The notes below the pieces were generated by a model. It was not told the DNA's origin and ran no database searches. It saw only the letters and a list, made by a program, of their open reading frames with translations. A DNA stretch of 64,000 nucleotides from a virus, in the IMG/VR virus record IMGVR_UViG_3300031951_000010. One strand, given 5' to 3'. Position numbers and translations under genes: made by a program. Below, piece by piece: positions 16,493 to 64,000 of the stretch (the first letter of the stretch is position 1; each line of letters opens with the position of its first letter).

Positions 16493-16756
16493 TTAATTGT
16501 CATCATGTGAATCTTTTTCAATCTGAAGGACGGCGTCGAAATCTTCGACTGTCTTGAATTCTTCAGCCACGACTTCCAGATTTTCTCCAGAAGCGATCAC
16601 ATAGTATGGTTTGTCTTTAAGTGGTGGATATTTAAATACCATTAACCGATAGGGACCACTATCGGGTGTGTTGGGATCATTTTCTTCCTTGTAAAAGAGA
16701 ACACGATAGTTTTTATCAAGAAGTGATTGAATTTCTTTTATGTCTTTGATATTCAT
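16493..16756 (-). CDS. Hypothetical protein
   Basis: 87 aa. Confidence 0.6.
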   Translation of the reverse strand: MNIKDIKEIQSLLDKNYRVLFYKEENDPNTPDSGPYRLMVFKYPPLKDKPYYVIASGENLEVVAEEFKTVEDFDAVLQIEKDSHDDN

Positions 16757-16778
16757 GATATTATTCTAGTTTGTTTTT

Positions 16779-17216
16779 TTAAATTTTGACTTTTCTACAG
16801 TAGTCTATTCCACTGAGGAAATATCCGAAAAGATTTCCACGACTTGCTTTCACTCCAATAAAGGATTTTGAGGGCAAGATGTAAGCTTCATCATCTCCGA
16901 TGAATTCATTTATTAATATGTCGCGGCAATTTGATTCCTCTTTGAGTTTTTCGAAGTTTTTCGAGGAACACAATAATGTGATGGCCACAAGATCATATGC
17001 TTCAATCTCCTTACATGCTGCTTCAATATCGGGGGAGATTTTCGAGGTTTTAAGGCAGCCCCAAAGTTCTTCTTCAATGTCTTCTCCGATTTCTCTATTT
17101 AAGCTTTGGTGAATTTCATAGTCTTGATTGTGTTTTTCGAAATGAAATATCGCGGGATACCCTTCATCAATATAATGGTTTGAAAGCAGCACGTTTTCGA
17201 GTGAAGTATGATTCAT
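16779..17216 (-). CDS. Hypothetical protein
   Basis: 145 aa. Confidence 0.6.
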   Translation of the reverse strand: MNHTSLENVLLSNHYIDEGYPAIFHFEKHNQDYEIHQSLNREIGEDIEEELWGCLKTSKISPDIEAACKEIEAYDLVAITLLCSSKNFEKLKEESNCRDILINEFIGDDEAYILPSKSFIGVKASRGNLFGYFLSGIDYCRKVKI

Positions 17217-17431
17217 GGTTTGTTTTTCTTGATCATATCCTTAAGTTCTTCGATAGTTTCTGGGAGACACTCTGCGATTTCTCGATTGTCCATAAGATCG
17301 ATTTTCGAGTATTCTATTCCCAGAAACTCAAGTGCTTTTTCCGCGGAAATTGTATGATTTTGATAAGCCAATTTCCCATCGACATATAGAGCTGTCCAGT
17401 CATCCATTATTACGATAGTAGTATTCATCAT
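17213..17431 (-). CDS. Hypothetical protein
   Basis: 72 aa, DDWTALYVDGKL.YQNH motif. Confidence 0.6.
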   Translation of the reverse strand: MMNTTIVIMDDWTALYVDGKLAYQNHTISAEKALEFLGIEYSKIDLMDNREIAECLPETIEELKDMIKKNKP

Positions 17432-17605
17432 GCTCCATCATCCAATCGAAGATATCCGCAACAAGAACAAAGTACTCCTAGTCCAGGATATGTATATGTG
17501 TTTTTCGAGGAACATGATTTGCACTCGATCATAACATTTAATTCTTTTAGGTTGTATTGTGATGCATCGTTTGATGCATCACAATTGTTCGCGTTAGTGT
17601 TCATT

Positions 17606-18619
17606 TTATTTTACTGTTGTGCTTTGGTTATCGATTCGACCAACGAACATTGCTCCCTTGTCATGATGGGTGTATCCTGCGTCGATCAATCTTTCGATTC
17701 TTCCGAGTCTTGCATCAATTCCTGTTAGATTTGCTTCTGGGCGCGGCCCACGATCATGTCTCATTCCATATCTAAGTGTTCTCAAATGCGCACCCGAGTT
17801 TAATCGAACATGTGGGGTTTCGGCAACTTTTCTCACATGCAAAACTCCAGCATCAAGACTAATTTGCCCGCCGATAAATCCATTGAGTTCAACAACTGGG
17901 CTGCTTACTGTTTCCATGTGCGCATAGTGAACGTGGAAATTTGTCATGGTTTGTGATGTTTCTTTAATTCTCGAATCAGAATCAATAGAAATGTTTAGAG
18001 CTGGCACTCCTTCTCTTAAAGAATACGCAACAAGATATTCGATGCTGATTTCCTCCGCACTAACAACTTCAACAGCTGATTTTTCGAAGTGCCCATTGGC
18101 GTGCAGTCTTGCAAAGTGCCCCCATGGCTGCTTGTCTGATCCATCTTGAAATCCTTGTCTAAAGAGGATTCCATGCTTGGGCATTCCCGAAAGTGGAGTA
18201 CCAACTCCATGCACCGAAATGATCCCCGATTGTTCAATTCTCATTCCTTCAATCGTAAGCACAGTCTTGCCTGACCAATTAGGGTTTTGTTGATATGCTA
18301 ATGTGATCGTGCCTCGAAGCTCAACGATATTTTGATAATCATATGGCTTTGGCAATCCGCCGATATATTCAAAAACAACACCAGGTGGATTTACATAAAT
18401 AAGTCCATGGCCACAATCTAGTTCCACGACCAATGGAGCCACCACGCCCATCTTATGGGTCTCGTAAATTTCGAGGCGAAATTCTCTCATCTTTCGATTG
18501 AGTTTTTCGAAGATCGCAGTATTATGCTCAGCAGCTGTCGGATCATTAAGTATGATTCCTTTTCTTCCGATCTTAATGTCTCTGAGCTGAATTGTTCTAT
18601 CTGTTCCAAACCACTTCAT
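17606..18619 (-). CDS. Hypothetical beta-rich protein (possible beta-helix)
   Basis: 337 aa, G/I/V-rich; function unassigned. Confidence 0.55.
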   Translation of the reverse strand: MKWFGTDRTIQLRDIKIGRKGIILNDPTAAEHNTAIFEKLNRKMREFRLEIYETHKMGVVAPLVVELDCGHGLIYVNPPGVVFEYIGGLPKPYDYQNIVELRGTITLAYQQNPNWSGKTVLTIEGMRIEQSGIISVHGVGTPLSGMPKHGILFRQGFQDGSDKQPWGHFARLHANGHFEKSAVEVVSAEEISIEYLVAYSLREGVPALNISIDSDSRIKETSQTMTNFHVHYAHMETVSSPVVELNGFIGGQISLDAGVLHVRKVAETPHVRLNSGAHLRTLRYGMRHDRGPRPEANLTGIDARLGRIERLIDAGYTHHDKGAMFVGRIDNQSTTVK

Positions 18620-18997: not shown

Positions 18998-19573
18998 ATG
19001 AAACAAAAGTTAATCATCTATGATATCGATGGCGTTGTAGCGAATAGCCAGGCTAGATATCAGCGAAATGGCGGAGATTTTCCGCTGGTCAAGCATGACT
19101 ATAATGAATTTCGCAAGTGTATGGTTAGATATGCTGAAGATGTGCATGATGACCCAAGTTTAGAGGTAGGTGTGAGCATGATTAATCAGATTCGACTAGG
19201 CCTCGATGTTGACCGCATGGTCGCGGTCACTGCTCGGGGAGAAGAAGGAAGAGAAAAAACTCTTTCGTGGCTCCAGTCCCATATGCCGTGGGAAGTGAAG
19301 AATGAAGACTTGATTATGAGGCCTGCTTATGTTGAATACTCTCCAGGCGTATATTGGGTAGAAAGTGAAGAGAAATTTGATGCTGTGGAATTTAAGCGAA
19401 TGGTGGCTGTCGAATTGATGGAAAACTATGATGTTGTAATGGCATTTGATGATCATCATGATATTTCACATGCTTATTGGGAAATAGGAATTCCCTCTGT
19501 CTGTTTAATGGTTCCTGGAGTGGATCAAGGCACTCGAATGCAAGCTGCAATTTCGAATGTTGTTCAAGGATGA
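18998..19573 (+). CDS. HAD-family phosphatase (PNKP 3'-phosphatase-like)
   Basis: IYDIDGVVA, VTAR, K, and AFDD motifs. Confidence 0.8.
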   Translation: MKQKLIIYDIDGVVANSQARYQRNGGDFPLVKHDYNEFRKCMVRYAEDVHDDPSLEVGVSMINQIRLGLDVDRMVAVTARGEEGREKTLSWLQSHMPWEVKNEDLIMRPAYVEYSPGVYWVESEEKFDAVEFKRMVAVELMENYDVVMAFDDHHDISHAYWEIGIPSVCLMVPGVDQGTRMQAAISNVVQG

Positions 19574-19764
19574 GATTGCGTTGTTGTGTTTGTGGAAGAT
19601 GGATGGGATGCGATGAAGAAATTCGAGACATTTCATTATCATCGGAGAGTTATTATGAGGATGCAGTATGCTCGTTAGCACATCGATCATGTTTAGAGGA
19701 AGAGAATGATCGGGGCTATAAAGACGAAGAGCAATATAGCTGCTGTTTAGATTCTTTTCGGTAA
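19570..19764 (+). CDS. Small Zn-finger protein
   Basis: MRLRCCVCGRW...HRSC; overlaps the upstream stop codon. Confidence 0.5.
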   Translation: MRLRCCVCGRWMGCDEEIRDISLSSESYYEDAVCSLAHRSCLEEENDRGYKDEEQYSCCLDSFR

Positions 19765-19772
19765 GGAGTTAT

Positions 19773-21467
19773 ATGTCCAATATTAAAGAAATTAAAATCA
19801 GTGATGGAGTTTTTGCTATAGTAGATGAGCAAGATTACGAACGTGTTATCAGCGTTGGTAATTGGCATATGCTTAAGGGTAGAAAATTTGTGTATCACCG
19901 ATTTAAGAAAAATGGCACGCGGTCACGAACTTCGCTTGGAGCTTTTATCTTGGGTTGCGCAGAAGTAAAGCATATTAATGGTGATGCGTTGGACTGCCGA
20001 AGATCGAATCTGATCCCAAAATTAGACAATAAGTCAGAATTTGTTCGCGAAGATGGTATTATTGGACATGTTTTAGATTCTTATGGAAGCCAAATTGCTG
20101 TAATTGATTCTGCAGATATTCCTCGCGCTCGACTTGTAAGGTGGTGGAAGGATGATAGCCGAGGGGTCTTGGGCAAGCTATCGAATGGCAAGCAAATTAA
20201 TCTTCAGAGATGGATTCTAGAGCTTGAATCCAGTGACTCACGCGCTGTTTTTTTTAAGGACGGTGATTTTACGAATTGTCGCAGATCAAATATGCATATT
20301 GTAAAGAATCCCACAGCTTTACGTTCTTACGAAAGAAAATTTAATGATTTTTCAATCCAGGGTTCAACTGTTTACATTAAATCGTATTGGAAATCTTATC
20401 CATTTGAAGTTCAAGTAGACGTTTCTGATTTAGATATGATAAAATCATACGGAAGATGGTCTATTATAGGCAGTGCTGAGCCGTATTTGTATGCTGTTGG
20501 CTCTAATTCAAGTGGCAAACAGATTCGTATGCATCGATTAATTATGAATGCACAAAAAACAGAAATTGTTGATCATATTGATGGAAATACATTAAACAAT
20601 CAGCGTGCTAATTTAAGAGTTACGGATAACCGCGGTAATGCCTTAAATCGCAACGTTTCTTCAAAAGGTGTTTCTGGCGATTCTAATGTTTACTTTCTGA
20701 GTCATTTAAAATCAAGACAGTGGTTGGTGAATCTTCGAGAAAAAGGTAGAAGTCTACACTGGTCTAGGCACGAAGACTTAGACACCGCACGCGAAACAGC
20801 ACAGCTGGCAAGAGCCATGTATTATCCGACAAGTAAAGAAGGCACTGCGATCACTGTAAATCTTGGGGGTTATCTAGAGTCTAGTTTTGTTAATGGCCCA
20901 GGAAATCGATGTGTAGTATGGTTTGCTGGCTGCCGCCGTGGATGCGTGGGTTGTTTTAATCCAGAACTTTGGTCTTTCCAGCCTCAGAATTTAGTTTCTC
21001 CAGAATCTCTTGCCAGTCGCATTATCAATAGTCAAGTTCATGGGTTGACTATCTCAGGCGGTGATCCGATGGATTCTCCGCTGGCAACTTTCCGATTTTT
21101 GAGAGCATTGCATGATTCGAACGGGGAATTAGGGGATCGCTTACCAGGCGGAATTATTCTTTTCACTGGCATGGTAATTGAGGAGTTAAATTATGTTCAA
21201 CGCGAATGCTTGAATTACATTGATCTTCTTATCGATGGCCGATTCGAGCAAGACAAGAGAATCGATCACATCCTTGCTGGCAGCTCAAATCAGCGCTTCC
21301 ATTTTCTTGACAAACCTGGCCGCGGAAAAGACAGAATCAATCCCGACGAAGTAAAGATCGACCATGAAGTCGAAGTGCACGCTAGCTCCGATCATTTAGA
21401 GATCACGGGCTTCCCATTTGTCAAGCACCAATGGTTAAAACAACACGGTTTAAAAGTAATTAAATAA
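19773..21467 (+). CDS. nrdG: Fusion of HNH-endonuclease repeats with an NrdG-like radical-SAM activase
   Basis: Three HNH-like units (last intact: RMHRLIM..VDHIDGNTLNNQRANLR), then S.VNGPG.RCVVWFAGCRRGCVGCFNPELW, GLTISGGDP, DLLIDGRF, GSSNQR. Confidence 0.85.
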   Translation: MSNIKEIKISDGVFAIVDEQDYERVISVGNWHMLKGRKFVYHRFKKNGTRSRTSLGAFILGCAEVKHINGDALDCRRSNLIPKLDNKSEFVREDGIIGHVLDSYGSQIAVIDSADIPRARLVRWWKDDSRGVLGKLSNGKQINLQRWILELESSDSRAVFFKDGDFTNCRRSNMHIVKNPTALRSYERKFNDFSIQGSTVYIKSYWKSYPFEVQVDVSDLDMIKSYGRWSIIGSAEPYLYAVGSNSSGKQIRMHRLIMNAQKTEIVDHIDGNTLNNQRANLRVTDNRGNALNRNVSSKGVSGDSNVYFLSHLKSRQWLVNLREKGRSLHWSRHEDLDTARETAQLARAMYYPTSKEGTAITVNLGGYLESSFVNGPGNRCVVWFAGCRRGCVGCFNPELWSFQPQNLVSPESLASRIINSQVHGLTISGGDPMDSPLATFRFLRALHDSNGELGDRLPGGIILFTGMVIEELNYVQRECLNYIDLLIDGRFEQDKRIDHILAGSSNQRFHFLDKPGRGKDRINPDEVKIDHEVEVHASSDHLEITGFPFVKHQWLKQHGLKVIK

Positions 21468-24490: not shown

Positions 24491-24580
24491 AACTTTTTTG
24501 ATATTCTGATCGTATTATAATTGACGGTACGTGTGGTATTGTTATTTCATTTGTAGGGGGCGCAAGCCCCCTTTTCCTTT
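24491..24580 (+). ncRNA. sRNA cassette 1 (promoter + 32 nt + GCAA terminator)
   Basis: 33-nt conserved head, variable body, GGGGGCGCAAGCCCCC + T-run. Confidence 0.6.
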
Positions 24581-27821: not shown

Positions 27822-27884
27822 GACCAACAACACACTCAAGTAGACTAATCATCCCCGAATCATTTCTGATTAGGGGATGATTTT

Positions 27885-53529: not shown

Positions 53530-54452
53530 CTTTTTTGATTATCATCATTAGGGTTGGGATCGGGGAAGTTTTCTTGATCTTGAACAAAGTCTCTCAAATC
53601 TTCGGTTCGATTAAACCATCCTGGGTTTGCTTTGGCATGAGGTCTCGTCTTCAAATAGGCCTCTCGAAGATTCGTGATTTTAATTGCCAGCTCTTGGTCT
53701 TTTTCAGGTGTACTTGCGTATTCCCACGTAAGTTTCATCGTTGCAGGCCCAAGAACGCCTGTTTGTGGAGCCCCGACAATTCTTTGAAGCAGCCTTATAG
53801 CCCTTGTTGTTCCCCCATGATATCCCCAGTCGGCGAGGGCCACAGCAGTTCTTTCAGGAAGTTCATTTCCTCGAATGGGGTTCCAATACATCTTTTCCAT
53901 AATTTTATGGGCTTCATTCGGGGTCATTTTTCTCACGCTTTGTCTTGGTAAATCCATCGAATCTCGCCATTGATTGTATGTGTTTTGTGTGACGCCCATG
54001 TTTGTGGCCCCGCCTGGGTCAGCGGATTTCTTTCTGTGGACAAATCCGCCTTCTGCTGGCAGCGTGAATTGTTTGAATTTTTTCAGATCGCCACGATTTG
54101 GTTTAACTTGTTTTGCTGGAGCTGGTTTAGTTGCTTGTTGTGGTGCAATAGGCTTGGATGTCTCTTTTCTGATCGGTTCTGGTGCTTTGGCTGCTGGCTG
54201 AACAAATTCTGTCGTGATCTTAACTGGTTCTCGATTTGAATCATAAGCGGGCGTCATTAATGCTTGGCCTGCAAGCATTGCTGGCACGCCGTACATCAGC
54301 GCTTTTGCAAATGGGTTTGTTCGTTTTTTTCTTGATTGAGCAAGTTTAACTGCGATGTCGTCAAGATAGTCAGCCTCTGTATAATGCCCGATATTATCAA
54401 GATGGCTGGCTATTCTATTCAGCTCTCCGATCATAGCAGTAACGTCTCTCAT
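53526..54452 (-). CDS. GH108 lysozyme with peptidoglycan-binding tail and N-terminal extension
   Basis: EGGFV...DPGGATNMGVT, YW..I, D.G...AIRLLQ..VG...G..GP.T, GW.NR; start set at MRDVT. Confidence 0.88.
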   Translation of the reverse strand: MRDVTAMIGELNRIASHLDNIGHYTEADYLDDIAVKLAQSRKKRTNPFAKALMYGVPAMLAGQALMTPAYDSNREPVKITTEFVQPAAKAPEPIRKETSKPIAPQQATKPAPAKQVKPNRGDLKKFKQFTLPAEGGFVHRKKSADPGGATNMGVTQNTYNQWRDSMDLPRQSVRKMTPNEAHKIMEKMYWNPIRGNELPERTAVALADWGYHGGTTRAIRLLQRIVGAPQTGVLGPATMKLTWEYASTPEKDQELAIKITNLREAYLKTRPHAKANPGWFNRTEDLRDFVQDQENFPDPNPNDDNQKS

Positions 54453-54737
54453 ATTGGGCAATCTCCAGAACTTATATTTGGCGAAAATTCTGGCTCTCAC
54501 CTTTGAGGCTAGACGACATTTGAAAAATCCCTTATTTTCGAGGTTCTGATCGGATATATGAGCTATGGACATTTTGCGTTCGCCTATGACTCTCAAACAA
54601 ATCATTTCCATGTCTGAGAATGATGAAAATGGCTACGTTCATGGAATTGTGCCCTTTTCGCTTGATGAAATCATGAACAACGATTTCGAGGGTATGATGG
54701 ATTTGTTTTCGGAAAGACTCACTGCCACTGATCTTTA

Positions 54738-55013
54738 ATGGATATTCATTACGAGGCTGTTGGCTTTGCTAATGGAATGATCTTGATTAAAGTTACTGGC
54801 GACCCTGAAACGATCATTGAGGGTGAATTTGGTCTAAAGGATGAGTTTCCCTACAATCTTCAACCTGGCGACGAGGTTACTTGGAACGACCCCGATGATG
54901 GCCTTTGCAGTGTCACAGGTATTATTTCTGAGATTGAGTGGAATGGCGACTCTGCAACAATCATGTTTACCTCTGGTCAAGAGATTGAAGTATTGGCAGG
55001 AGAGCTTTCGTGA
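54738..55013 (+). CDS. Hypothetical protein
   Basis: GDEV.WNDPD.G.CS..G.I motif. Confidence 0.6.
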   Translation: MDIHYEAVGFANGMILIKVTGDPETIIEGEFGLKDEFPYNLQPGDEVTWNDPDDGLCSVTGIISEIEWNGDSATIMFTSGQEIEVLAGELS

Positions 55014-55540
55014 AGATTACTAAGTTTGCAGACATTCCTCAATACACCCGAGGGGCAAATTACGCAGTTAATGTTCCCTGGAGCCACTTGGAACGTGCGC
55101 TTGAAGCTTACAATGAGGGATGCACTAATCTTTATCTGGACCCTGATTTCCAACGCGGTCATGTCTGGTCACTTGATAAGAAGATTGCTTATGTTACATA
55201 CATTCTTCGCGGTGGTCAAGGCAGTCGTGAAATTAAGTTCAATCATCCTAATTGGTCAAATAGTGTCAAAGGAGATATGGTTCTTGTTGACGGTAAACAA
55301 AGACTTGAGGCTGTTCGTGGATTTCTTAGAGATGAATTCCCAATTTATGGTAGCTTGTTCAGTGAATTTACTGATGAATTGCGAATCATGCGATGCGATT
55401 TTGTTTTCCAAGTGAATGATTTGAAAACCAGAGAGGAAGTTTTACAATGGTATCTTGACTTGAATAGCGGTGGTGTTGTTCACACCGAAGAAGAGCTTAA
55501 TCGAGTCAGAGAAATGCTTGAAAAGGAAAAGGGGAATTAA
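55010..55540 (+). CDS. DUF262 / ParB-like domain protein
   Basis: LDPDFQRGHVW...VLVDGKQRLEA...LN.GG. Confidence 0.85.
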   Translation: MKITKFADIPQYTRGANYAVNVPWSHLERALEAYNEGCTNLYLDPDFQRGHVWSLDKKIAYVTYILRGGQGSREIKFNHPNWSNSVKGDMVLVDGKQRLEAVRGFLRDEFPIYGSLFSEFTDELRIMRCDFVFQVNDLKTREEVLQWYLDLNSGGVVHTEEELNRVREMLEKEKGN

Positions 55541-55580
55541 AAAATCCCCTTTTTCAGAATAATGATCGGATATAAGAAGC

Positions 55581-55928
55581 ATGAGTGAAGATTTTTTGAA
55601 CGGTTTTGCTATCGGTGCTGTTGCGATTATAGTTATTTGGGTTTGCTCGGCAATTAAGGCGAGTATTCCAAAACCTACAAACATGGGGTGGCTCGATGGA
55701 TCGGGTGATTGGATTGAGGTGGTTCGTATCGGTCACTCAGGAGTGACTGTGCGACATTGTGGGTATAATTCACGTAATTCACACTGGACATTTAGGCGCT
55801 GTGCAGAAGATGCTGGCTGGCCTCTTTCCAAGATGCTTGATTACCTGGGCCTTCCCGATGAAAAGACACTCAAGGAAGCTGACATGACCATGGGTGAATG
55901 GCTTTCACAAAAAAATAAAAATTCTTGA
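55581..55928 (+). CDS. Membrane-anchored hypothetical protein (paralog of 56430)
   Basis: CA.DAGW...M.D.LGLPDE..LKE..MT.GEWL. Confidence 0.7.
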   Translation: MSEDFLNGFAIGAVAIIVIWVCSAIKASIPKPTNMGWLDGSGDWIEVVRIGHSGVTVRHCGYNSRNSHWTFRRCAEDAGWPLSKMLDYLGLPDEKTLKEADMTMGEWLSQKNKNS

Positions 55929-55956
55929 AACTTTTCAAAGGTGATCGCCGTATAAC
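55927..55956 (+). promoter_or_regulatory. Promoter variant of an attenuated tRNA operon
   Basis: GAAACTTTT...GGTGATCGCCGTATAA; CGYCGTATAA also precedes the leaders at 1709(-) and 61725. Confidence 0.7.
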
Positions 55957-55996
55957 AAAAGAACATACACAAAGCAAAAGCTTTAAGGACACAATT

Positions 55997-56065
55997 ATGA
56001 CTCGCCGATATCTTTCACTGCTAGGACTCTTATCGCTTTCTCTTGAGAAAGCGGCGATTAGCTGA
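55997..56065 (+). CDS. Leu-rich attenuator leader peptide MTRRYLSLLGLLSLSLEKAAIS
   Basis: AAGGA SD; 7 Leu codons (6 CTN); 3' 20 nt complementary to the terminator 5' arm. Confidence 0.82.
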   Translation: MTRRYLSLLGLLSLSLEKAAIS

Positions 56066-56086
56066 TAGATTTTGCGATCAGTGTTT

Positions 56087-56127
56087 AATCCCCGATTTCT
56101 CTCAAGGAGTCGGGGATTTTTGTTTTT
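56087..56127 (+). terminator. Attenuator terminator upstream of tRNA-Leu genes
   Basis: AATCCCCGA...TCGGGGATT followed by TTTGTTTTT. Confidence 0.88.
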
Positions 56128-56138
56128 GCGTTTCACAT

Positions 56139-56223
56139 ACCGCTCTGGAGTAGCCAAACTTGCTACAGGCAACAGTCTTAGAAACTGTCTCTTTTCTGGG
56201 TTGGAATCCCAGGGGCGGTACCA
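56139..56223 (+). tRNA. Atypical tRNA-Leu(TAG)-like RNA
   Basis: ACCGCTC/GGGCGGT-A-CCA; ACAGT-CTTAGAA-ACTGT; T-loop TTGGAAT; GTAGC/GCTAC D-stem; no long variable arm. Confidence 0.7.
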
Positions 56224-56274
56224 ATATTGACAATAGAATAGAGGAAAGAGAAAATAGATTTTCGAGTGATAAAT

Positions 56275-56361
56275 GCGGACGTGGCGGAATTGGTTTACGC
56301 GCTACTTTGAGATGGTAGTCCCCGATTGGGGGTGTGGGTTCGAGTCCCACCGTCCGCACCA
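56275..56361 (+). tRNA. tRNA-Leu(GAG)
   Basis: Canonical type II cloverleaf, loop TTGAGAT, CCA. Confidence 0.93.
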
Positions 56362-56429
56362 AAAATCCCTCAAATTTTCGAGCCGCGATTGTATATATGA
56401 ATTATGAATGATTTTCATGGGAGTGCTCT

Positions 56430-56786
56430 TTGTCTAGTTGGCTGATCGGGTTGATTATCACGTTCTTTGTGATTTATTTTTTCTTCGGGAGTCAAAACCT
56501 TGATGATGAAGAAGAAGATTTAGAGTACTTACATTCTTGGAAAGATGGAAATGGCTTTACGACTAAAGTAATCCAAATCGGTCACGATAAGATCGTTGTA
56601 GAAAATTTTAGCAGAAAGCGCGGGCGAAAAGTTCGGGTGTGGACTGTTGAAGAATGCGCCAAAGACGCAGGATGGTCAGTTGAAAAGATGAGAGATCATC
56701 TTGGCCTTCCCGATGAAAGCGCTTTAAAAGAAGTTGAAATGACTCTTGGCGAGTGGCTTCACGAAAAGAATCAACATCAAAGATAG
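56430..56786 (+). CDS. Membrane-anchored hypothetical protein (paralog of 55581)
   Basis: Shared C-terminal block; start ambiguous (the promoter-predicted ATG at 56404 is out of frame). Confidence 0.6.
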   Translation: MSSWLIGLIITFFVIYFFFGSQNLDDEEEDLEYLHSWKDGNGFTTKVIQIGHDKIVVENFSRKRGRKVRVWTVEECAKDAGWSVEKMRDHLGLPDESALKEVEMTLGEWLHEKNQHQR

Positions 56787-56840
56787 AACCGATCAGTAAA
56801 AAATCCCCTGTTTTCGTGGGGGATTTTTGATAGATAAAGC

Positions 56841-57966
56841 ATGGCAACACGAGGCTGGGAGCCCACAGACTACAATCCGAACATTATTCGTGATGTTTCT
56901 AATCGAACCATTGAAGAATTTGAAAACGATATTCGATTTTCTCGTGACTGGGGCTTCGTACAAAGTTATGGCCTTGAAAGAGCTACTCAGCTTCTGGGTC
57001 GAGCCCCAGATACCCGAGCAGTTGAATTCTTTAATGAGTTCATGTCTCAGTATTCCCGAGCCGTCGAGCTTATGGAACAGCTAGGCATCAAAAAGAAGAT
57101 TCTGAAAAAATTCAAGCGATATCCGATTGCTCCTTGTCTTTATGCTGATTTGAATGAAGAATGTAATGATGTATTGACGGGATCGAAAATCGGTGGAATT
57201 CCTGACCAGCGCCAAGCTGGAAGTGCGCTGTCTTCAAGGCAATATTGTTAGTCGCATCAAGGCAGCTTGGCCCAAGGATTCAAATGGTAAATATATGATA
57301 TTCGTTGGCCAAATCAAAGTGCCTGGACACATCGTCGCTCCCTGGGATTATATCATGGGCGAGAAAATAGACAAGTATGGAAATTATGATCGACCTCTTA
57401 ATGGGTTTAGCCACGGGCAGAACATTTTTGAACAAGAGCATACTTATTTAATTTTTCGCAGTGCGCATGCACCAAATTTTGGAGACATGTTCGATTGTGC
57501 GATGGTGCATTCTCGCTTCGATGCCAATGAATCGGTAAAGGAAGATAAATATATTGAGGCTGTGAAAAAAGCTATTCCGCAGTATCGCCGAAGCAACATG
57601 GAAGACAATTGTCCAATTTGGAGTGATCGGTGTCACACGCTAACTGATTACCGAGTTAGCATGACGCTTGATTTAATTCGCGACTTTGAATGGGCAGGTG
57701 GGTTTGAAGGCAATGTATTTGATTACATAGATTCGTGGAGAGAACACTTCGGTTCTTATGGCACAATTCAAATTTTTGGCGATCCAAGATCACAACAGAC
57801 CCCACAGCGATTTGCTGAAACACGCACTGTTTACCGTCCTCGAATGATGCGCCCGTGGCTTGGAATGACAGACCTAAAGCACGATTACACTTGGCAATAT
57901 AATTTTTGTCACGAAGGTTTTCTGAGTGAATCAATTATGGGCAAAGTTGATGGAAGCTGTACCTAA
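56841..57966 (+). pseudogene. YwqG/DUF1963-like gene split by a frameshift (56841..57251 + 57193..57966)
   Basis: GSKIGGIPD in one frame continues as WPK...MIFVGQI in the +1 frame. Confidence 0.5.
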
Positions 57967-58010
57967 TTAAAAATCCCCTGTTTTTCATGGGGGATTTTGA
58001 TATATAAGGC

Positions 58011-58412
58011 ATGGCTGATTATTACACCCATTTTTCCTTTGTCGTTGACGTTAAGAATCGTGAACAAGCAGACGGTTTGAAGAAAATGCTCACCCAGGCC
58101 AAAAATGAAGAGCTAAATGAAGAAACTTTGTACACTCCTTGGAGTTGTGAAACTAAGGACGATTTAACTAGCTTTTGGTTTCACTCTGATGATTGTGGTC
58201 AGGTTGATCTTATTGTTGACATTTTGGCTAAATGGCAAGAAGACTTCAATTACGATCAGCCCATTTGTTTTGAGTGGGCGAATACTTGTAGTAAGCCCAA
58301 ACTGGATGCTTTTGGTGGTGGGTCAGTTCTGATTTACAAGGGCGAAGCTCATTACACGAACACTTTTGATTGGTTGACTAAAAAGAAAGCCGAACTTGGA
58401 ATCGTTGACTGA
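58011..58412 (+). CDS. Hypothetical protein
   Basis: MADYYTHFSF...FEWANTCSKPKLDAFGGG phage-type family. Confidence 0.75.
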   Translation: MADYYTHFSFVVDVKNREQADGLKKMLTQAKNEELNEETLYTPWSCETKDDLTSFWFHSDDCGQVDLIVDILAKWQEDFNYDQPICFEWANTCSKPKLDAFGGGSVLIYKGEAHYTNTFDWLTKKKAELGIVD

Positions 58413-58457
58413 CTAAAAAATCCCCTGTTTTTCAATAGGGGATTTGATATATCAATT

Positions 58458-58594
58458 GTGCCAAGAAGCACTTGAAGTGCAGTCTACGGATATGCCTTAT
58501 TAGGGCATGTGATTACTGCGTAGGAAGGACAGGGTGTAATGAAGTACGGTCGCGACGAAAAGTTACATCGGGTTAAAATCCCAACTTGGCACCA
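58458..58594 (+). ncRNA. 137-nt tRNA-like RNA
   Basis: Starts at the promoter-predicted +1; GTGCCAAG/CTTGGCAC terminal stem, ends ...CCA; GCAC-N5-GTGC-AGT arm; GGG-TTAAAAT-CCC T-like arm. Confidence 0.65.
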
Positions 58595-58616
58595 AATTGA
58601 AAAATGAGAATCTAAT

Positions 58617-58917
58617 CGGGGCGTGGCGAAATGGCAGACGCAGGGGACTTATAAAATGAGCACTTGTTTGTGAAAGCTGCAAGTGAATGCAATCAAATTC
58701 GGTGAAACCTTAACAGTTAGGCTGATGGCAATACCGAGCCAAGCTAACTCAAAACAGAGTTAGAAGGTGTAGAGACTAGATGGTTGCTGCCTAAGTCGAA
58801 AGATATGGCAAAGGTATAGTCCAGACCACAAAATCCTTTGGGATCGTAGTGAAAGCTATAGTGGTATGAAAATCCCTTAGTAGCAATACTGTGTGGGTTC
58901 GAGTCCCACCGCCCCGA
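58617..58917 (+). tRNA. tRNA-Leu(TAA) with group I intron
   Basis: Exons 58617-58650 and 58869-58917 rebuild loop CTT|AAAA; CCA not encoded. Confidence 0.9.
58651..58868 (+). ncRNA. Group I intron (trnL/IC3-like), 218 nt, no ORF
   Basis: P AAATTCGGTGAAAC, Q AATACCGAGC, R GTGTAGAGACTAGATGG, S AAGGTATAGTCC; terminal G; inserted after U34. Confidence 0.9.
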
Positions 58918-58946
58918 TTAGGTTATATATTGATTACTAATGCGCT

Positions 58947-59465
58947 TTGTGTGCTTTTAGTATAAGAATGTTTGTGTCACGTTTGCAAAAATATACCCTA
59001 GAGGAGATAAAAGAAATAATATCTAAATCAAAATCTTATGCTGAAGTAATTCGATCTATTGGTTTAATTCCTGCTGGTGGAAATTACAAAACATTGCAAA
59101 GTTTTGTACATGAATACCGAATTGATACTTCGCATTTTCTGGGCTCAGCTTGGGGGCGAGGAAACCAATTGGATTATCTCCACAATAGCAATAGAAAATC
59201 ATTAGAAGATGTTTTTTCGGGAAAAGTAGCTTATAAATCAAGCCATAAATTAAGGCTTCGGCTGATTAAAGAAGGATATTTTGAGCATAAATGCTATAAA
59301 TGTGGACTAAAAGAGTGGCAAGGACACGAAATACCCTTGGAATTAGAGCATATAAATGGAGATCATTGTGATAACAGTCTCGAAAACCTCATTATTCTTT
59401 GCCCCAACTGTCATGCTCAAACAGAAACTTATGCTGGTAAAAACAAAAAAAGACGATTAGGTTAA
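58947..59465 (+). CDS. Free-standing HNH endonuclease
   Basis: CYKC...LELEHINGDHCDNSLENL..LCPNCH. Confidence 0.9.
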   Translation: MCAFSIRMFVSRLQKYTLEEIKEIISKSKSYAEVIRSIGLIPAGGNYKTLQSFVHEYRIDTSHFLGSAWGRGNQLDYLHNSNRKSLEDVFSGKVAYKSSHKLRLRLIKEGYFEHKCYKCGLKEWQGHEIPLELEHINGDHCDNSLENLIILCPNCHAQTETYAGKNKKRRLG

Positions 59466-59505
59466 AAATCCCCTAAATTTTTCTTCAGATTTCGATAAAT
59501 TAATT

Positions 59506-59754
59506 ATGATCGATGACAAAAGAACTTCAGAATGTGTTATTCTTCATATTGAAGTTGATGTTGAGTACCCTGAAGGAATGCATCTTGGGGTTGTTCTATC
59601 TGGTTTGCAAAACAATGCGAAAATTGCCATTACTGAACTTGATGACGATAGGGTCCAAATCACAGCAAATAGAATCACAGCAGTTGAACATTTTGTTACT
59701 GGAGAAATTTTAGAAGATTACCAGTGGAAAAAGAAAAAAGAATCTCCTCGATAA
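59506..59754 (+). CDS. Hypothetical protein
   Basis: Fronted by the promoter motif. Confidence 0.6.
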   Translation: MIDDKRTSECVILHIEVDVEYPEGMHLGVVLSGLQNNAKIAITELDDDRVQITANRITAVEHFVTGEILEDYQWKKKKESPR

Positions 59755-59758
59755 ATGT

Positions 59759-59842
59759 GCCGCAGTGGTGGAATGGTAGACACGGCAAGCTCAAACCTTG
59801 CTGCCGAAAGGCGTGAAGGTTCGAATCCTTTTTGCGGCACCA
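59759..59842 (+). tRNA. tRNA-Leu(CAA)
   Basis: Type II cloverleaf, loop CTCAAAC, CCA. Confidence 0.93.
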
Positions 59843-59910
59843 TATTTTCACATATGCATGACTATGTGAAAAATCCCCTGTTTTCTCTTTCTTGATCGGA
59901 TATATAAATC

Positions 59911-60540
59911 ATGTTTAATATGAATGTGATTCTTTTCAAGAACAATTCTATCGAAGAAAATTATCTTTTCTCTGGTGAAAATTCTGAAGATGTTGCGAAA
60001 AAGGCAGAAAGCAAAATGATTGAAATTCTTCGTTCAGAAATGTCTAACTTTGACGAATACACGTCGGAAGATATTGACAACATTTTGGAAGATGGATATG
60101 AATCCTTTGGAAATGGAGCGGTTTTTATTACGTGGCCTGACATTGTTGATGTTGATAAGGAGATTGATTCGGAAAATAATTTTGTTTTTCGTGGCACTAT
60201 TGAATACTCCATCCCGCACATTGATTCAGAAGTAGTTCGCCTGTGCGCCGCACTAAATGAGCCCATTGAAGTTGGTCTACAGTGGGAATCACATTATCGC
60301 AATGGTAATGGCTACGCTGTCCGCGTTAATGCAGATATCTACTCAGTTGATGAAGAACTTGCTGCCGAGGAATTTAGTGATTATTGGGATTCAGGATGCG
60401 ATGATGAAATTCGCTATTCTGGGGACTACAATTGGTCCCTTTTGGGCAAAGACTATAAAGAGGCCATCAGTATTCTCCAAAAGTATGTTGATGAGCAAAA
60501 GCGTCGTTACCCAGGCTACGATATTAGAATTAGCAAATAA
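59911..60540 (+). CDS. Hypothetical protein
   Basis: Fronted by the promoter motif. Confidence 0.7.
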   Translation: MFNMNVILFKNNSIEENYLFSGENSEDVAKKAESKMIEILRSEMSNFDEYTSEDIDNILEDGYESFGNGAVFITWPDIVDVDKEIDSENNFVFRGTIEYSIPHIDSEVVRLCAALNEPIEVGLQWESHYRNGNGYAVRVNADIYSVDEELAAEEFSDYWDSGCDDEIRYSGDYNWSLLGKDYKEAISILQKYVDEQKRRYPGYDIRISK

Positions 60541-60577
60541 TCCCCTGTTTTCTCTTTCTTGATCGAATATATAAATC

Positions 60578-61000
60578 ATGACAATTGACGGAAAGTTGCT
60601 TAAAAGACTAATGTGTAGCAACGAGGCTTTTGATATTTTGGGTGACATCGTAAGTTGGAATTCTGGAGGTTGCTGGATTCTTGCCGAAGCTCTGCGCCGA
60701 TTCATTGGCGATCAGGCTACTATCGTGGCCATCGCTGATGATCGCTGCCAACACCAACATATTGTCGTGAAAGTGGGGAATTTGTATTATGACGCCGACG
60801 GAGAGTCGAACGAAGGGCGTCTGCTGCATCGCTGGATGGATTATGAACGACTCCGTAATCCTCGAATCGTAGGTTTTGATCCAGAACTGGCCGCTGATTT
60901 AGAAATTCCTTGCGAAGAAGAACTTGTAACGCAAGTCTATAACTTGCTGAACTCGCGTCTGAAAAATCCCCTTTTTTCACAATCGGGAGCGCATATATAA
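60578..61000 (+). CDS. Hypothetical protein
   Basis: GGCWILAEAL...H.VVK....YDADG motif. Confidence 0.7.
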   Translation: MTIDGKLLKRLMCSNEAFDILGDIVSWNSGGCWILAEALRRFIGDQATIVAIADDRCQHQHIVVKVGNLYYDADGESNEGRLLHRWMDYERLRNPRIVGFDPELAADLEIPCEEELVTQVYNLLNSRLKNPLFSQSGAHI

Positions 61001-61003
61001 ATC

Positions 61004-61210
61004 ATGGACCCATTTCTTTTTTATTCTACCTATTTTATCTTGGGACTTGGTTTTATGTTCGCATTGATGGCAATCGGAGCGCATCACTATACCAATGGCC
61101 CATCTCGTGAACAAGAACAAAAACAAAGAATCAAGTTTATTATTCTATCAGTGCTTTTAATAGCTAGTGCAATTTTTCTGGGCCGTTATGCTGCGGGTCT
61201 GCTTTTTTGA
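61004..61210 (+). CDS. Small membrane protein
   Basis: Two TM segments; fronted by the promoter motif. Confidence 0.65.
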   Translation: MDPFLFYSTYFILGLGFMFALMAIGAHHYTNGPSREQEQKQRIKFIILSVLLIASAIFLGRYAAGLLF

Positions 61211-61276
61211 TTTCATTCTCTTGAAATGGTTTTAAAAAATCCCCTTTTTTCAGAAAACCAAATCAATATAAAAAAT

Positions 61277-61597
61277 ATGCGAATTCGACCGCAATCCGAC
61301 CCGAACAAGGAATATCTCATCGACTTTTACTACCCGTATGGGAAGCAAGGACACAAGAAGAAGGGCACCAAGACTGTCTGCACTATCTCTGTCGGCCCTG
61401 TGGGTAGTCTCGACAAGGACAAGACCGAAGTCTCGACCACTACCGTTCGCCGACATAGTACCGATCAGGACAATCTTGTCGTAGCTCGTAATTATGCACT
61501 GGCCAAGGCCCTATCCCCGATTGAAGCTAGTGTCCGACAAGAGATTTGGGAACAGGCTCCGATTCGACGAGCAGACATTTCCCTGGAACTCGACTAA
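61277..61597 (+). CDS. Hypothetical protein
   Basis: Fronted by the promoter motif; terminator-like hairpin at 61615-61648. Confidence 0.65.
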   Translation: MRIRPQSDPNKEYLIDFYYPYGKQGHKKKGTKTVCTISVGPVGSLDKDKTEVSTTTVRRHSTDQDNLVVARNYALAKALSPIEASVRQEIWEQAPIRRADISLELD

Positions 61598-61724
61598 ACT
61601 CCAAAAACATTCTCATTGAGGGAGAATTTAATCCCTCAATGAGAAAAAACAAAAAACTGCTAACAAAAAGCAGGTGATCGTCGTATAATAAGAGAAGAAA
61701 CTGAAAAGCACAAAGAGCTATATT

Positions 61725-61847
61725 ATGAATCATCTCTTATCGACGACAATATGTGGAACAACAGGAACCTCAACAAGAGGAATCCTTTCCCTTGGCGTTA
61801 TCGGCAAGGATAGTGATTCTGATTCAGGAGAACCCATCGAATCGTAG
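61725..61847 (+). CDS. Thr/Gly/Ser-rich attenuator leader peptide (40 aa)
   Basis: MNHLLSTTICGTTGTSTRGILSLGVIGKDSDSDSGEPIES; ACA x4 and GGA x4; end complementary to the terminator arm. Confidence 0.78.
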   Translation: MNHLLSTTICGTTGTSTRGILSLGVIGKDSDSDSGEPIES

Positions 61848-61867
61848 CTTTACTGTGATTACAGAAC

Positions 61868-61908
61868 AAAGAGGCTCGATTCGATAAGATCGAGCCTCTT
61901 TTCTTTTT
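61868..61908 (+). terminator. Attenuator terminator upstream of tRNA-Gly/Ser/Thr
   Basis: 13-bp stem AAAGAGGCTCGAT/ATCGAGCCTCTTT followed by a T-rich tail. Confidence 0.9.
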
Positions 61909-62037
61909 AGATATGATGTCTGGGAAGAGAAAGATCGAATATTGAAAATTTCATACAGGTATAGATATAAAAGTGTTAGGGGGTGTTGGATCGATCTTTG
62001 ATCGCAGGCCTCACCCCCTTGATCGAGACACATTTTC

Positions 62038-62111
62038 GCGAGATTGGTATATGGGTTGTGCCCTAGCCTTCCAAGCTAGAGAAAAGGGTTCGAATCCCTT
62101 ATCTCGCTCCA
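62038..62111 (+). tRNA. tRNA-Gly(TCC)
   Basis: Cloverleaf, loop CTTCCAA, U73, CCA. Confidence 0.93.
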
Positions 62112-62162
62112 ATTTAAGACACATTTCTTTGTGCTGCCAATGGGCAGCTTTCAAAAGAAAAC

Positions 62163-62249
62163 GGATGGGTGACAGAGCGATCTATTGTAGCGGTCTTGAA
62201 AACCGCCGTGCCAAAAGCACCGTGGGTTTGAATCCCACCCCATCCTCCA
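62163..62249 (+). tRNA. tRNA-Ser(TGA)
   Basis: Type II, loop CTTGAAA, CCA; U73 is atypical for Ser. Confidence 0.9.
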
Positions 62250-62276
62250 TTTTGTAACAAAATCATAAAATTCAAA

Positions 62277-62310
62277 GCAGGTGTAGCTCAGTGGTAGAGC
62301 GCCCGCCGCG
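62277..62310 (+). pseudogene. Orphan tRNA 5' half
   Basis: GCAGGTG-TA-GCTC-AGTGGTA-GAGC; acceptor pairs 6/7 with CTCCTGC at 62869-62875. Confidence 0.65.
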
Positions 62311-62347
62311 AAGGTTGATGGTTGCAATATCGATAAATAGATTATGT

Positions 62348-62764
62348 ATGGCAATAACAAAATACAAAGGAGCCGTCGGGCTAACTAATGTAATGGCCTG
62401 TCTTGTCAATCAAAAAGCAAAAATCTTTGTTCCAATAGACGAAGACTGTCAATATGACCTGGTGGTAGATTATCAAAATTATCTTTACAGAGTGCAAGTT
62501 AAATATGCTGAGGCAAAAAATGGCAAGATCGTTGTAAAGACGCGCTCAACGAATAACTATTGTGAAATTCGTTATACTAAAGATCATTTTGACGTGATTG
62601 CTGTTTGGGACAATGTTGGCAAAAAAGCATATTTTATTTCATCGAATTTAATCACAGAAGGAATGACGGAAATGACCTTGAGATTAGATGCACCAAAAAA
62701 CAATCAAACTAAAAACATAAGATTGGCTCGTAATTATGAGCAATTTAATGCTGCGGTCGCATAG
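62348..62764 (+). CDS. PD-(D/E)XK endonuclease (I-Ssp6803I-like)
   Basis: TK.KG...P......YDLVVD....YRVQVK...Y....FD..AV; 3' end overlaps tRNA-Thr. Confidence 0.85.
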   Translation: MAITKYKGAVGLTNVMACLVNQKAKIFVPIDEDCQYDLVVDYQNYLYRVQVKYAEAKNGKIVVKTRSTNNYCEIRYTKDHFDVIAVWDNVGKKAYFISSNLITEGMTEMTLRLDAPKNNQTKNIRLARNYEQFNAAVA

Positions 62765-62832
62765 TGGTCGATTGCACCTCTCTTGTAAAGAGGAACTCCA
62801 CACCGTGGGTTCGAATCCCACCCGTAGCTCCA
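62750..62832 (+). tRNA. tRNA-Thr(TGT)
   Basis: GCTGCGG/CCGTAGC, loop CTTGTAA, CCA; 11-nt variable region. Confidence 0.88.
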
Positions 62833-62845
62833 TTTTTCGCACATA

Positions 62846-62876
62846 TGTGTCAGGGGTTCGAATCCCCTCTCCTGCT
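62846..62876 (+). pseudogene. Orphan tRNA 3' half
   Basis: TGTC-AGGGG-TTCGAAT-CCCCT-CTCCTGC-T. Confidence 0.65.
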
Positions 62877-62946
62877 TTGAGTTGAGTGATGATATCCGAT
62901 CATAAAAAATCCCCCTTTTTCTCAATAGTGATCGGATATATAAAGT

Positions 62947-63545
62947 ATTGCTGTGAGCTAAATCAATTGACACAGCATGATGAAACCAAAATCATCTAAA
63001 AACAATAAGGTGCTCCATATACGTCTGGGAAAGATAAATTAGACGTGGACACACTGTGATGTGGACTAATCACAGCGCACTGGGGCATGTGTGCAAGCCC
63101 GAAAAGCCTATCTTTACTGATATAGTTAAAGAGAAAGAGCAGAGAGTTAAGGCTTAAAATAAACTCCATGCGTTCGTAAGGATGAACTCAAAGACGAGTT
63201 CAGTTATGACTAGGATACGAGAGGAGGGAGGCAATGAGTTTCTCTCCTCTCCCCGACAAAGCGATTTCCGACTGCTCATCGGAGAAGTGATCTAGTAAAA
63301 CACTCAGAAAAACACTAGCGTAGGAAATGCGTTAATCCCTGATTTTTTATCGGTTTTTAGAGACAAAAAACTGTTCGTATAGGGCTTGCGGTAAGCCTCT
63401 TGTTTTAGCTAGGTGATCCTGTATGTAAAAACCAAGCGGATGGAACAAATCAATTTGTTTTCGCGAGCAAATGATCCATTGACTTTGGGGAACAGCGTAA
63501 GAACGTTTCGCCATGAGGCTTTGAGCAAAGTCTCGTTCCCCAAAA
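62947..63545 (+). ncRNA. Large (~600 nt) highly structured ncRNA
   Basis: Own promoter motif whose +1 is not an ATG; no credible ORF; more than 12 consecutive hairpins; ends GGGGAAC...GTTCCCC before tRNA-Asp. Confidence 0.7.
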
Positions 63546-63558
63546 ATAAAAAGATTCT

Positions 63559-63635
63559 GGGTATGTAGTTCAGTTGGTTAGAGCACCTGCCTGTCACGCA
63601 GGAAGTCGCGAGTTCAAGTCTCGTCATATCCGCCA
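63559..63635 (+). tRNA. tRNA-Asp(GTC)
   Basis: Canonical cloverleaf, loop CTGTCAC, G73, CCA. Confidence 0.95.
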
Positions 63636-63655
63636 AAATTTCCAAAGGAGACAAA

Positions 63656-63871
63656 ATGAATAGACAAATAGAAAGCCTCGATCATCTGGTGTCTCTTGGG
63701 CTACTGACATCATATGAGTTTGTAAACGTGTCAGCCAATAACATTGAGGGCGAGATTTCAGAACATCATAATTCTGATCGATTGAAACTCATATTCCCGA
63801 ATGGGTTGGAAGTGAAGATCACTGCGATCACAACAGGCATGGAAGAAGATGCTCTTTTGAGATTGGAATAA
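63656..63871 (+). CDS. Hypothetical protein
   Basis: GGAG SD; 71 aa. Confidence 0.6.
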   Translation: MNRQIESLDHLVSLGLLTSYEFVNVSANNIEGEISEHHNSDRLKLIFPNGLEVKITAITTGMEEDALLRLE

Positions 63872-64000
63872 AAATCCCCCATTTTCAGAAGAGTGATCGG
63901 ATATAAGAAGTATGGAAGCAAAGATTTATCGCCAGGCTCATCCCCAGGATGAAAATCGTCTTTCTGTTGCCGCTGATATTTTTGCACGGCGGCACCGCCT

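Follow-up and report, generated by a model that had tools for sequence, protein, structure and literature searches.

The IMG/VR virus record IMGVR_UViG_3300031951_000010 was analyzed as a single stretch of 64,000 nt (hereafter the window), and it contains a small unit in which a leucine-rich leader open reading frame (ORF), an intrinsic terminator and two tRNA-type genes with leucine anticodons follow each other. This Leu unit is probably a ribosome-mediated (leader-peptide) transcription attenuator that gates a tRNA-like RNA with anticodon UAG and a tRNA-Leu(GAG). A Leu attenuator had been proposed at this place from a first reading of the bare sequence (the original prediction), and it is supported by the rank of its alternative pairing among all terminators of the window, by an enrichment of the leader in codons matching its own downstream anticodons and by folding with a ribosome mask. 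The case is one of internal replication and statistics, made in silico, with two sister units of the same design in the same window, unit A (Met/Asn) and unit C (Thr/Gly/Ser).

The elements of the Leu unit (unit B) stand in the order of an attenuator: promoter, Shine-Dalgarno (SD) site, first-AUG ORF, hairpin 1:2, pairing 2:3, terminator stem 3:4 with its U-tract, and finally the RNA genes (Table 1). A stretch of 40 nt leads from the promoter end to the leader ATG, which is the first AUG 3' of the promoter and lies 7 nt behind the SD sequence AAGGA (55985-55989); SD sites of other genes of this phage read TAAGGAG or TAGGAG. As had been claimed, the leader at 55997-56065 contains 7 Leu among its 22 codons, mostly of the CTN box (CTT three times, CTG, CTA, CTC and TTA) and with TTG absent, and the tRNA-Leu(CAA) gene of the phage belongs to a separate unit (59759-59842, behind a separate ORF). 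Codons 6 to 11 include CTT, CTG, CTA and CTC once each, which is the set of four codons read by the anticodons GAG and UAG, and codon 12 is TTA. Folding bears out the alternative pairings as well: positions 56042-56061 (CTTGAGAAAGCGGCGATTAG) are complementary to 56085-56106 (TTAATCCCCGATTTCTCTCAAG), and the alternative partner CGCTTTCT (56034-56041) forms hairpin 1:2 across the loop CTTG with AGAAAGCG (56046-56053) through 8 bp (CGCUUUCU/AGAAAGCG). Segment 2 can thus enter either of two mutually exclusive folds.

The window comes from a large uncultured freshwater phage and encodes rIIA-like and NrdG-like proteins, an NAPRTase and a GH108 lysin. Window-identical DNA is found on contigs as long as 420,993 bases and in at least 14 metagenome runs (freshwater and "fungus"); the phage has a size of at least 421 kb. 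Its standard promoter, AAAAATCCCC-N14-TGATCGGATATAW, is very regular (29 sites versus 2.5 expected), and the ATG of a gene usually follows only 6 to 7 nt on (about 25 sites in the window, e.g., 31541, 40176, 55564, 59894 and 63895); most phage mRNAs are therefore probably leaderless or nearly so. In many cases the AAATCCCC element of this promoter is also an arm of the terminator hairpin that lies before it. CGYCGTATAA, a variant of the standard TGATCGGATATAW element, occurs at exactly three sites of the window (1762-1753 on the minus strand, 55946 and 61679), and at each of them a mini-ORF, a terminator and tRNAs follow. Three short cassettes, at 24508, 28212 and 28922, carry a promoter related to this tRNA-unit variant, GAAACTTTTTTGATATTCTGATCGTATTATAAT; their bodies are short and variable, and the GGGGGCGCAAGCCCCC hairpin is identical in all three.

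The three CGYCGTATAA sites define the Leu unit and its two sisters. In unit A, the leader MFNMNLNNNMWAFSGPPDQ and a terminator at 1621-1592 (minus strand) precede a CAU tRNA-like RNA and tRNA-Asn GTT; in unit C, a leader of 40 codons and a terminator at 61868-61901 are followed by tRNA-Gly TCC, tRNA-Ser TGA and tRNA-Thr TGT. The upstream strand of the antiterminator reaches or spans the leader stop codon in all three units (strand and stop codon at 56041-56062 and 56063 in unit B, 1674-1650 and 1652-1650 in unit A, and 61835-61857 and 61845-61847 in unit C). The first 15 nt of the unit A leader ORF (ATGTTTAATATGAAT, 1709-1695 on the minus strand) are also the start of a 209-aa gene (59911-59925), an identity that hints that this leader may derive from the 5' end of a gene.

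The alternative pairing exceeds chance expectation in these units. We collected every hairpin of the window with a ΔG of at most -12 kcal/mol and a T-run behind it (n = 22 terminators) and scored the best RNAduplex interaction of the 72 nt upstream with the 5' arm and loop, using 300 dinucleotide-shuffled versions of these 72 nt as the reference. For the Leu unit this duplex has -16.8 kcal/mol compared to a shuffle mean of -9.7 (z = -2.8), and only 2 of the 300 shuffles are as good. Ranks 1 to 3 among the 22 terminators, by energy as well as by z, are held by the three tRNA units with the CGYCGTATAA promoter (unit C with -21.6 kcal/mol and z = -3.7, unit A with -19.7 and -2.7, then the Leu unit), an outcome that a prespecified trio would reach by chance in 1 of 1540 cases. 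The remaining 19 terminators have z values from -1.3 to +1.6. For the terminators at 27847 and 42860, which share the ATCCCCGA/TCGGGGAT type with the Leu unit, no upstream complement exists, and antiterminator complementarity is likewise missing at those of the small-RNA (sRNA) cassettes (z = -0.2 and +1.6).

The leaders also match the tRNAs encoded downstream of them. Compared to the codon usage of the long ORFs of the window, CTN codons are enriched in the Leu leader (6 of 21 versus a background of 4.4%; binomial p = 2e-4), AAY and ATG (Asn/Met) codons in the unit A leader (7 of 18; p = 4e-4), and GGR, TCR and ACR codons in the unit C leader (13 of 39; p = 3e-6), whereas the six off-diagonal combinations of leader and codon set are not enriched. 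Among the 568 ATG ORFs of 15 to 60 codons, the CTN fraction of the Leu leader is reached by two, itself included, and the leaders of the Leu unit, unit A and unit C rank second, first and sixth for their own codons (top 0.2-1%). The cognate triplets fall in the frame of the leader ORF: counted by frame (0/1/2), they number 6/2/2 in the Leu unit, 7/0/0 in unit A and 13/2/2 in unit C.

To follow the effect of a translating ribosome, we computed folds of the transcript, ending at the terminator loop, while holding 28 nt unpaired as the ribosome footprint at every possible A-site position. Without a ribosome, the Leu unit forms hairpin 1:2, which sequesters segment 2 and leaves the terminator arm free. 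When the A-site is placed at any of codons 2 to 13, a range that includes Leu codons 6, 8, 9, 11 and 12, 11 to 12 of the 14 arm bases pair upstream as antiterminator; with the A-site at codons 14 to 19 or at the stop codon, the arm is free again. In this model, folding of the Leu unit reproduces trp-type logic, in agreement with the 1:2 / 2:3 / 3:4 arrangement of the original prediction. The mask model gives a less clean picture of units A and C, which adopt the antiterminator by default when no ribosome is present.

In the mechanism that we infer, transcription would start at the promoter variant and the first AUG would open the 22-codon ORF. If Leu-tRNA reading CUN codons were scarce, a ribosome translating the leader would stall at codons 6 to 12 (CUU, CUG, CUA, CUC, UUA) and cover segment 1, leaving segment 2 (56041-56062) to pair with the terminator 5' arm so that the polymerase could read into the tRNA genes. 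Fast decoding would instead bring the ribosome to codons 14 to 22 or the stop codon, where it would cover segment 2, and the 14-bp terminator would form and end the transcript at about 56125. Absence of translation would result in termination as well, with hairpin 1:2 holding segment 2. Since added CUN-reading tRNA would relieve the stall, the proposed circuit would be one of negative feedback, and since the gated genes encode tRNA-type RNAs, its output would act directly on the decoding speed that is sensed.

Table 1. Features of the Leu unit in the window (all positions in window coordinates).
Feature	Coordinates	Strand	Remarks
Promoter of the tRNA-unit class	55925..55956	+	upstream element TTGAAACTTTT, core GGTGATCGCCGTATAAC
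Predicted 5' untranslated region (UTR), about 34 nt	55963..55996	+	transcription start site inferred
Leader ORF	55997..56065	+	22 sense codons and TGA; peptide MTRRYLSLLGLLSLSLEKAAIS
Hairpin 1:2 (putative anti-antiterminator or pause hairpin)	56034..56053	+	in the minimum-energy fold
Segment 2, antiterminator upstream strand	56041..56062	+	last base 1 nt 5' of the stop codon (56063)
Small apical hairpin CUGAU...AUCAG between segments 2 and 3	56062..56081	+	from the fold of 56030-56110
Segment 3 (5' arm and loop of the terminator plus the beginning of its 3' arm)	56085..56106	+	pairs with segment 2 or 4
Intrinsic terminator	56087..56128	+	14-bp stem (56087-56118), CUCA loop, then TTTTGTTTTTG; -20.1 kcal/mol
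Non-canonical tRNA-like RNA, anticodon UAG	56139..56223	+	A73, encoded CCA; cloverleaf is the minimum-energy fold
Sigma70-like promoter TTGACA-17-GAAAAT	56227..56255	+	consensus match only; 31 such sites versus 20.5 expected in the region
Canonical class II tRNA-Leu(GAG)	56275..56361	+	encoded CCA; found by ARAGORN; Rfam 57.6 bits

The two RNA genes behind the terminator are of different quality, and the original description of the unit as preceding two tRNA-Leu genes holds for one of them. The GAG gene is a canonical tRNA-Leu, scored by Rfam and detected by ARAGORN as given in Table 1. In contrast, the gene with anticodon TAG encodes a tRNA-like RNA that reaches 25 bits with the Rfam tRNA model, below the threshold of 29 bits, and is missed by ARAGORN. 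Its variable region of 7 nt forms no long arm, its D-loop is devoid of GG, its T-loop reads TTGGAAT, its junctions are lengthened and its end is ACCA, so that it departs from a canonical tRNA-Leu in score, class II arm, G18G19 and the T-loop consensus TTCRANY. It begins 11 nt 3' of the U-tract, lacks its own promoter and is unchanged in the relative L002 described below. The leader design serves three units and not every tRNA of the phage. In the 10 kb past the window end, an ORF or a structured RNA immediately precedes each of three further tRNAs and a tRNA-like RNA, and no variant promoter occurs, so that this stretch offers no out-of-sample units.

Transcription of such a unit can be followed in nature for unit C. 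Among contigs of four freshwater metatranscriptomes placed on positions 54500-64000, error-free RNA contigs cover the unit C leader in all four, although most protein genes nearby have no RNA contig cover. These contigs start at 61706, 61709, 61723 and 61748, i.e., in two runs 18 to 21 nt after the TATAAT that ends at 61688 and in the other two further in, and they end at 61892 and 61905, in or at the terminator, or at 61959 and 61982, 50 to 80 nt past it; contig boundaries as such cannot prove transcript ends. The contigs show that the CGYCGTATAA promoter class is used in natural samples and that a leader RNA built in this way is made there. Between the unit C terminator and tRNA-Gly (61911-62037), the sequence contains a promoter-like GGTATAGATATAAAAG and a long hairpin GGGGGTG...CACCCCC, and the RNA contigs reading past the terminator stop within this stretch.

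Comparative material is limited by the near-identity of what could be found. Searches of INPHARED and IMG/VR with the 115-aa flanking protein, the exact leader and a 395-aa neighbour returned no close relatives, and protein-cluster look-ups gave around 25 contigs from many samples (L084-L102, L105-L107) that are 99.85-100% identical to the window. Only two contigs are diverged, L002 (96.5% identity) and L003 (91.9%), and the latter stops in the 5' UTR. Within the leader region, L002 differs from the window by CTC to CTA, the sole substitution in the ORF and a synonymous one (Leu to Leu), by T56073C in the loop of the apical hairpin between segments 2 and 3, and by one extra T in the 5' UTR; no difference falls in a stem. 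Its divergence is mosaic, ranging from 0.3% to 8.3% per segment, with 8.3% in the upstream gene, 2% in the leader and 0.3% in the downstream gene. Two other routes to relatives were tried and rejected: a GmrSD_N-like neighbour gene led to 80 IMG/VR loci that are unrelated phages devoid of the promoter motif and the unit, and a metagenome scan for the pattern GAAACTTT-N11-CGYCGTATAA gave 47 matches, all of them unrelated chance matches.

A number of observations weigh against an attenuator at the Leu unit. Leu codons 14 and 16 lie in an arm of hairpin 1:2, where a stall would favour termination, and the complete transcript at equilibrium always folds into the terminator, so that the choice between terminator and antiterminator must be a kinetic one, as it is for classical attenuators. 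Frame specificity of the CTN triplets is marginal when the Leu unit is taken by itself (p = 0.08), and at least 33% Leu is found in 4 of the 568 small ORFs, the Leu leader included, showing that Leu-rich small peptides have other causes, too. The first gated gene is tRNA-like and non-canonical, while the second could be driven by the sigma70-like promoter in front of it, i.e., independently of the attenuator. Elsewhere in the phage, at least five tRNA genes (Leu CAA, Thr GGT, Met CAT, Arg TCT and Asp GTC) are devoid of the leader design, most of them directly after ORFs and Asp GTC after a structured noncoding RNA, and in the one distant relative found, the rIIA relative L103, tRNAs stand behind plain sigma70-like promoters with no leader. 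Covariation is absent because the changes in L002 touch no stem and the other contigs are about 100% identical, and given the mosaic divergence of L002 the conservation of the leader is no argument either. The Leu leader is uncovered in all four metatranscriptomes, which is an absence of cover and not evidence; the sole cover within 56085-56401 comes from tRNA-Leu of other organisms with 4 mismatches.

Some of these observations would fit an independent small gene, in which promoter, mini-ORF or sRNA and terminator form a self-contained unit producing a 22-residue hydrophobic peptide or an sRNA. The tRNAs would then have promoters of their own or depend on leaky read-through, Leu richness would reflect hydrophobicity, and the 2:3 complementarity would have arisen by chance. 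Promoters of the same class (GAAACTTTT...GATCG...TATAA) indeed drive three short terminated cassettes without any tRNA (24508, 28212 and 28922), a sigma70-like promoter precedes tRNA-Leu(GAG), and the peptide stretch LSLLGLLSLSL is amphipathic or hydrophobic. However, we regard such a gene as unlikely: it leaves unexplained why strong upstream complements are found at exactly the three terminators that precede tRNAs and at none of the 19 others, and why each of three mini-ORFs unrelated to one another fits the anticodons encoded behind it, and the tRNA-like RNA 11 nt after the U-tract would have no promoter. That the Leu unit has no function at all, being an ordinary terminator beside which an ORF and a complementary stretch arose by chance, seems very improbable to us. 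Its statistics are indeed moderate when taken singly (p = 0.007 for the pairing and 2e-4 for the codons) and comparative support is absent, but several independent features coincide, the pattern is replicated three times in the genome, and few changes, none of which disrupts an element, have accumulated in a relative that is up to 8% diverged in neighbouring genes.

The less clean mask model of units A and C, with the antiterminator as default fold in the absence of a ribosome, would be more in line with a real terminator/antiterminator switch that responds to another input, such as general translation or a phage protein or RNA binding the leader, and that might serve infection timing or the processing of tRNA precursors. 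The phage has a promoter system of its own and perhaps its own transcription factors. Yet the match of codons in three units with different amino acids points to codon-specific sensing, and no T-box, riboswitch or known leader family is found at E <= 1, so that we consider a switch of this kind quite improbable. If the three units are attenuators as proposed, they could together form a decoding-surveillance circuit in which every leader would sample precisely the codons of its own tRNAs and depletion of host tRNAs for these codons, for example by anticodon-nuclease defences or by the codon demand of the phage, would induce replacement tRNAs, and their shape-variant first products (the UAG tRNA-like RNA and its CAU counterpart in unit A) may resist or decoy nucleases; we offer this extension tentatively and would rather doubt it in its full form.

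Leader-peptide attenuators control amino acid operons of enterobacteria (trpL, leuL, hisL, pheL, thrL and ilvL). The Leu unit resembles the trpL/leuL/hisL type in its promoter-proximal short ORF rich in regulatory codons and in the pairings 1:2, 2:3 and 3:4; segment 2 adjoins the stop codon in both, and leuL likewise uses CUN Leu codons. Unlike the enterobacterial leaders, it is phage-encoded, has a phage-specific promoter and would gate tRNA-type RNAs and not enzymes, and its leader features each of the four CUN codons once (codons 6 to 11) instead of a run of one codon. Neither Leu_leader nor other leader families of Rfam match at E <= 1 within 54000-64000, where only weak sRNA hits over the terminator were obtained. 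Phenylalanyl-tRNA synthetase of E. coli is controlled by the pheST attenuator with its pheM leader. This is the nearest functional precedent, i.e., leader-peptide attenuation of a translation component, but there a synthetase is gated and not tRNA genes. An attenuator at the tRNA-Phe genes of E. coli was considered and rejected, as pheV has neither a leader nor a terminator upstream. T-box elements work without translation, by direct binding of uncharged tRNA through a specifier codon and the T-box sequence. They likewise choose between terminator and antiterminator by the state of a specific tRNA, but the Leu leader is about 100 nt long and has an ORF and an SD site, and no T-box match was obtained at E <= 1 in 54000-64000.

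Among other phages, phiCbK has annotated terminators directly 5' of three tRNA blocks, a similarity of layout only, and its gp083 is a 45-codon ORF with P, K, L and S at 23 of 45 residues that stands ahead of Pro, Lys, Leu and Ser tRNAs and is followed by a terminator. The phiCbK-like Caulobacter phages are unrelated to the phage studied here and differ in their promoter and in their longer tRNA arrays. Searches of the full-text literature gave no instance of tRNA genes under a leader-peptide attenuator, and to our knowledge leader-peptide attenuation is known for amino acid biosynthesis and one synthetase operon. What is new about the proposed attenuator is thus the kind of gene controlled, tRNA genes, while the mechanism itself is known. 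If the proposal is true, phages would regulate how much tRNA they supply through direct feedback from the speed of ribosomes at the codons concerned, which bears on the long-standing question of why phages carry tRNAs (compensation of codon usage versus replacement of host tRNAs destroyed by defence nucleases). The leaders would also be compact, codon-specific sensors of decoding speed that are testable and reusable, and three specificities in one genome would come with built-in experimental controls.

The surroundings of the Leu unit have several features of their own. It is flanked by paralogous genes at 55581-55928 (115 aa) and 56430-56786 (118 aa) that share the C-terminal motif GW..EKM.D.LGLPDE..LKE..MT.GEWL; these proteins match no Pfam family and have almost no homologues among 5.8 billion proteins. 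Further downstream, the region 58416-58923 contains a group I intron (Rfam 58.2 bits, 58640-58843) with tRNA-like pieces on both sides. The ORF behind it (58947-59465) has an HNH-like Cys/His pattern, and error-free metatranscriptome RNA contigs cover 58467-58876. An apparent pair of tRNA halves is located at 62281-62315 (5' half, GCAGGTGTAGCTCAGTGGTAGAGC...) and 62850-62876 (3' half, ...AGGGGTTCGAATCCCCTCTCCTGCT), and the approximately 540 nt between them hold a PD-(D/E)XK_5 ORF (about 62348-62764) and tRNA-Thr(TGT). Positions 62864-63507 are a noncoding region of approximately 600 nt with a copy of the standard promoter upstream; its RNA has no match in Rfam and is by far the most abundant one on the stretch examined in three of the four metatranscriptomes (contig depths of 53 to 142). 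Close to the tRNA region of the phage, 6 to 10 kb past the window end, contig L105 encodes a protein with WGR and PARP-catalytic domains (16727-18007) and a Macro-domain protein (19247-19828).

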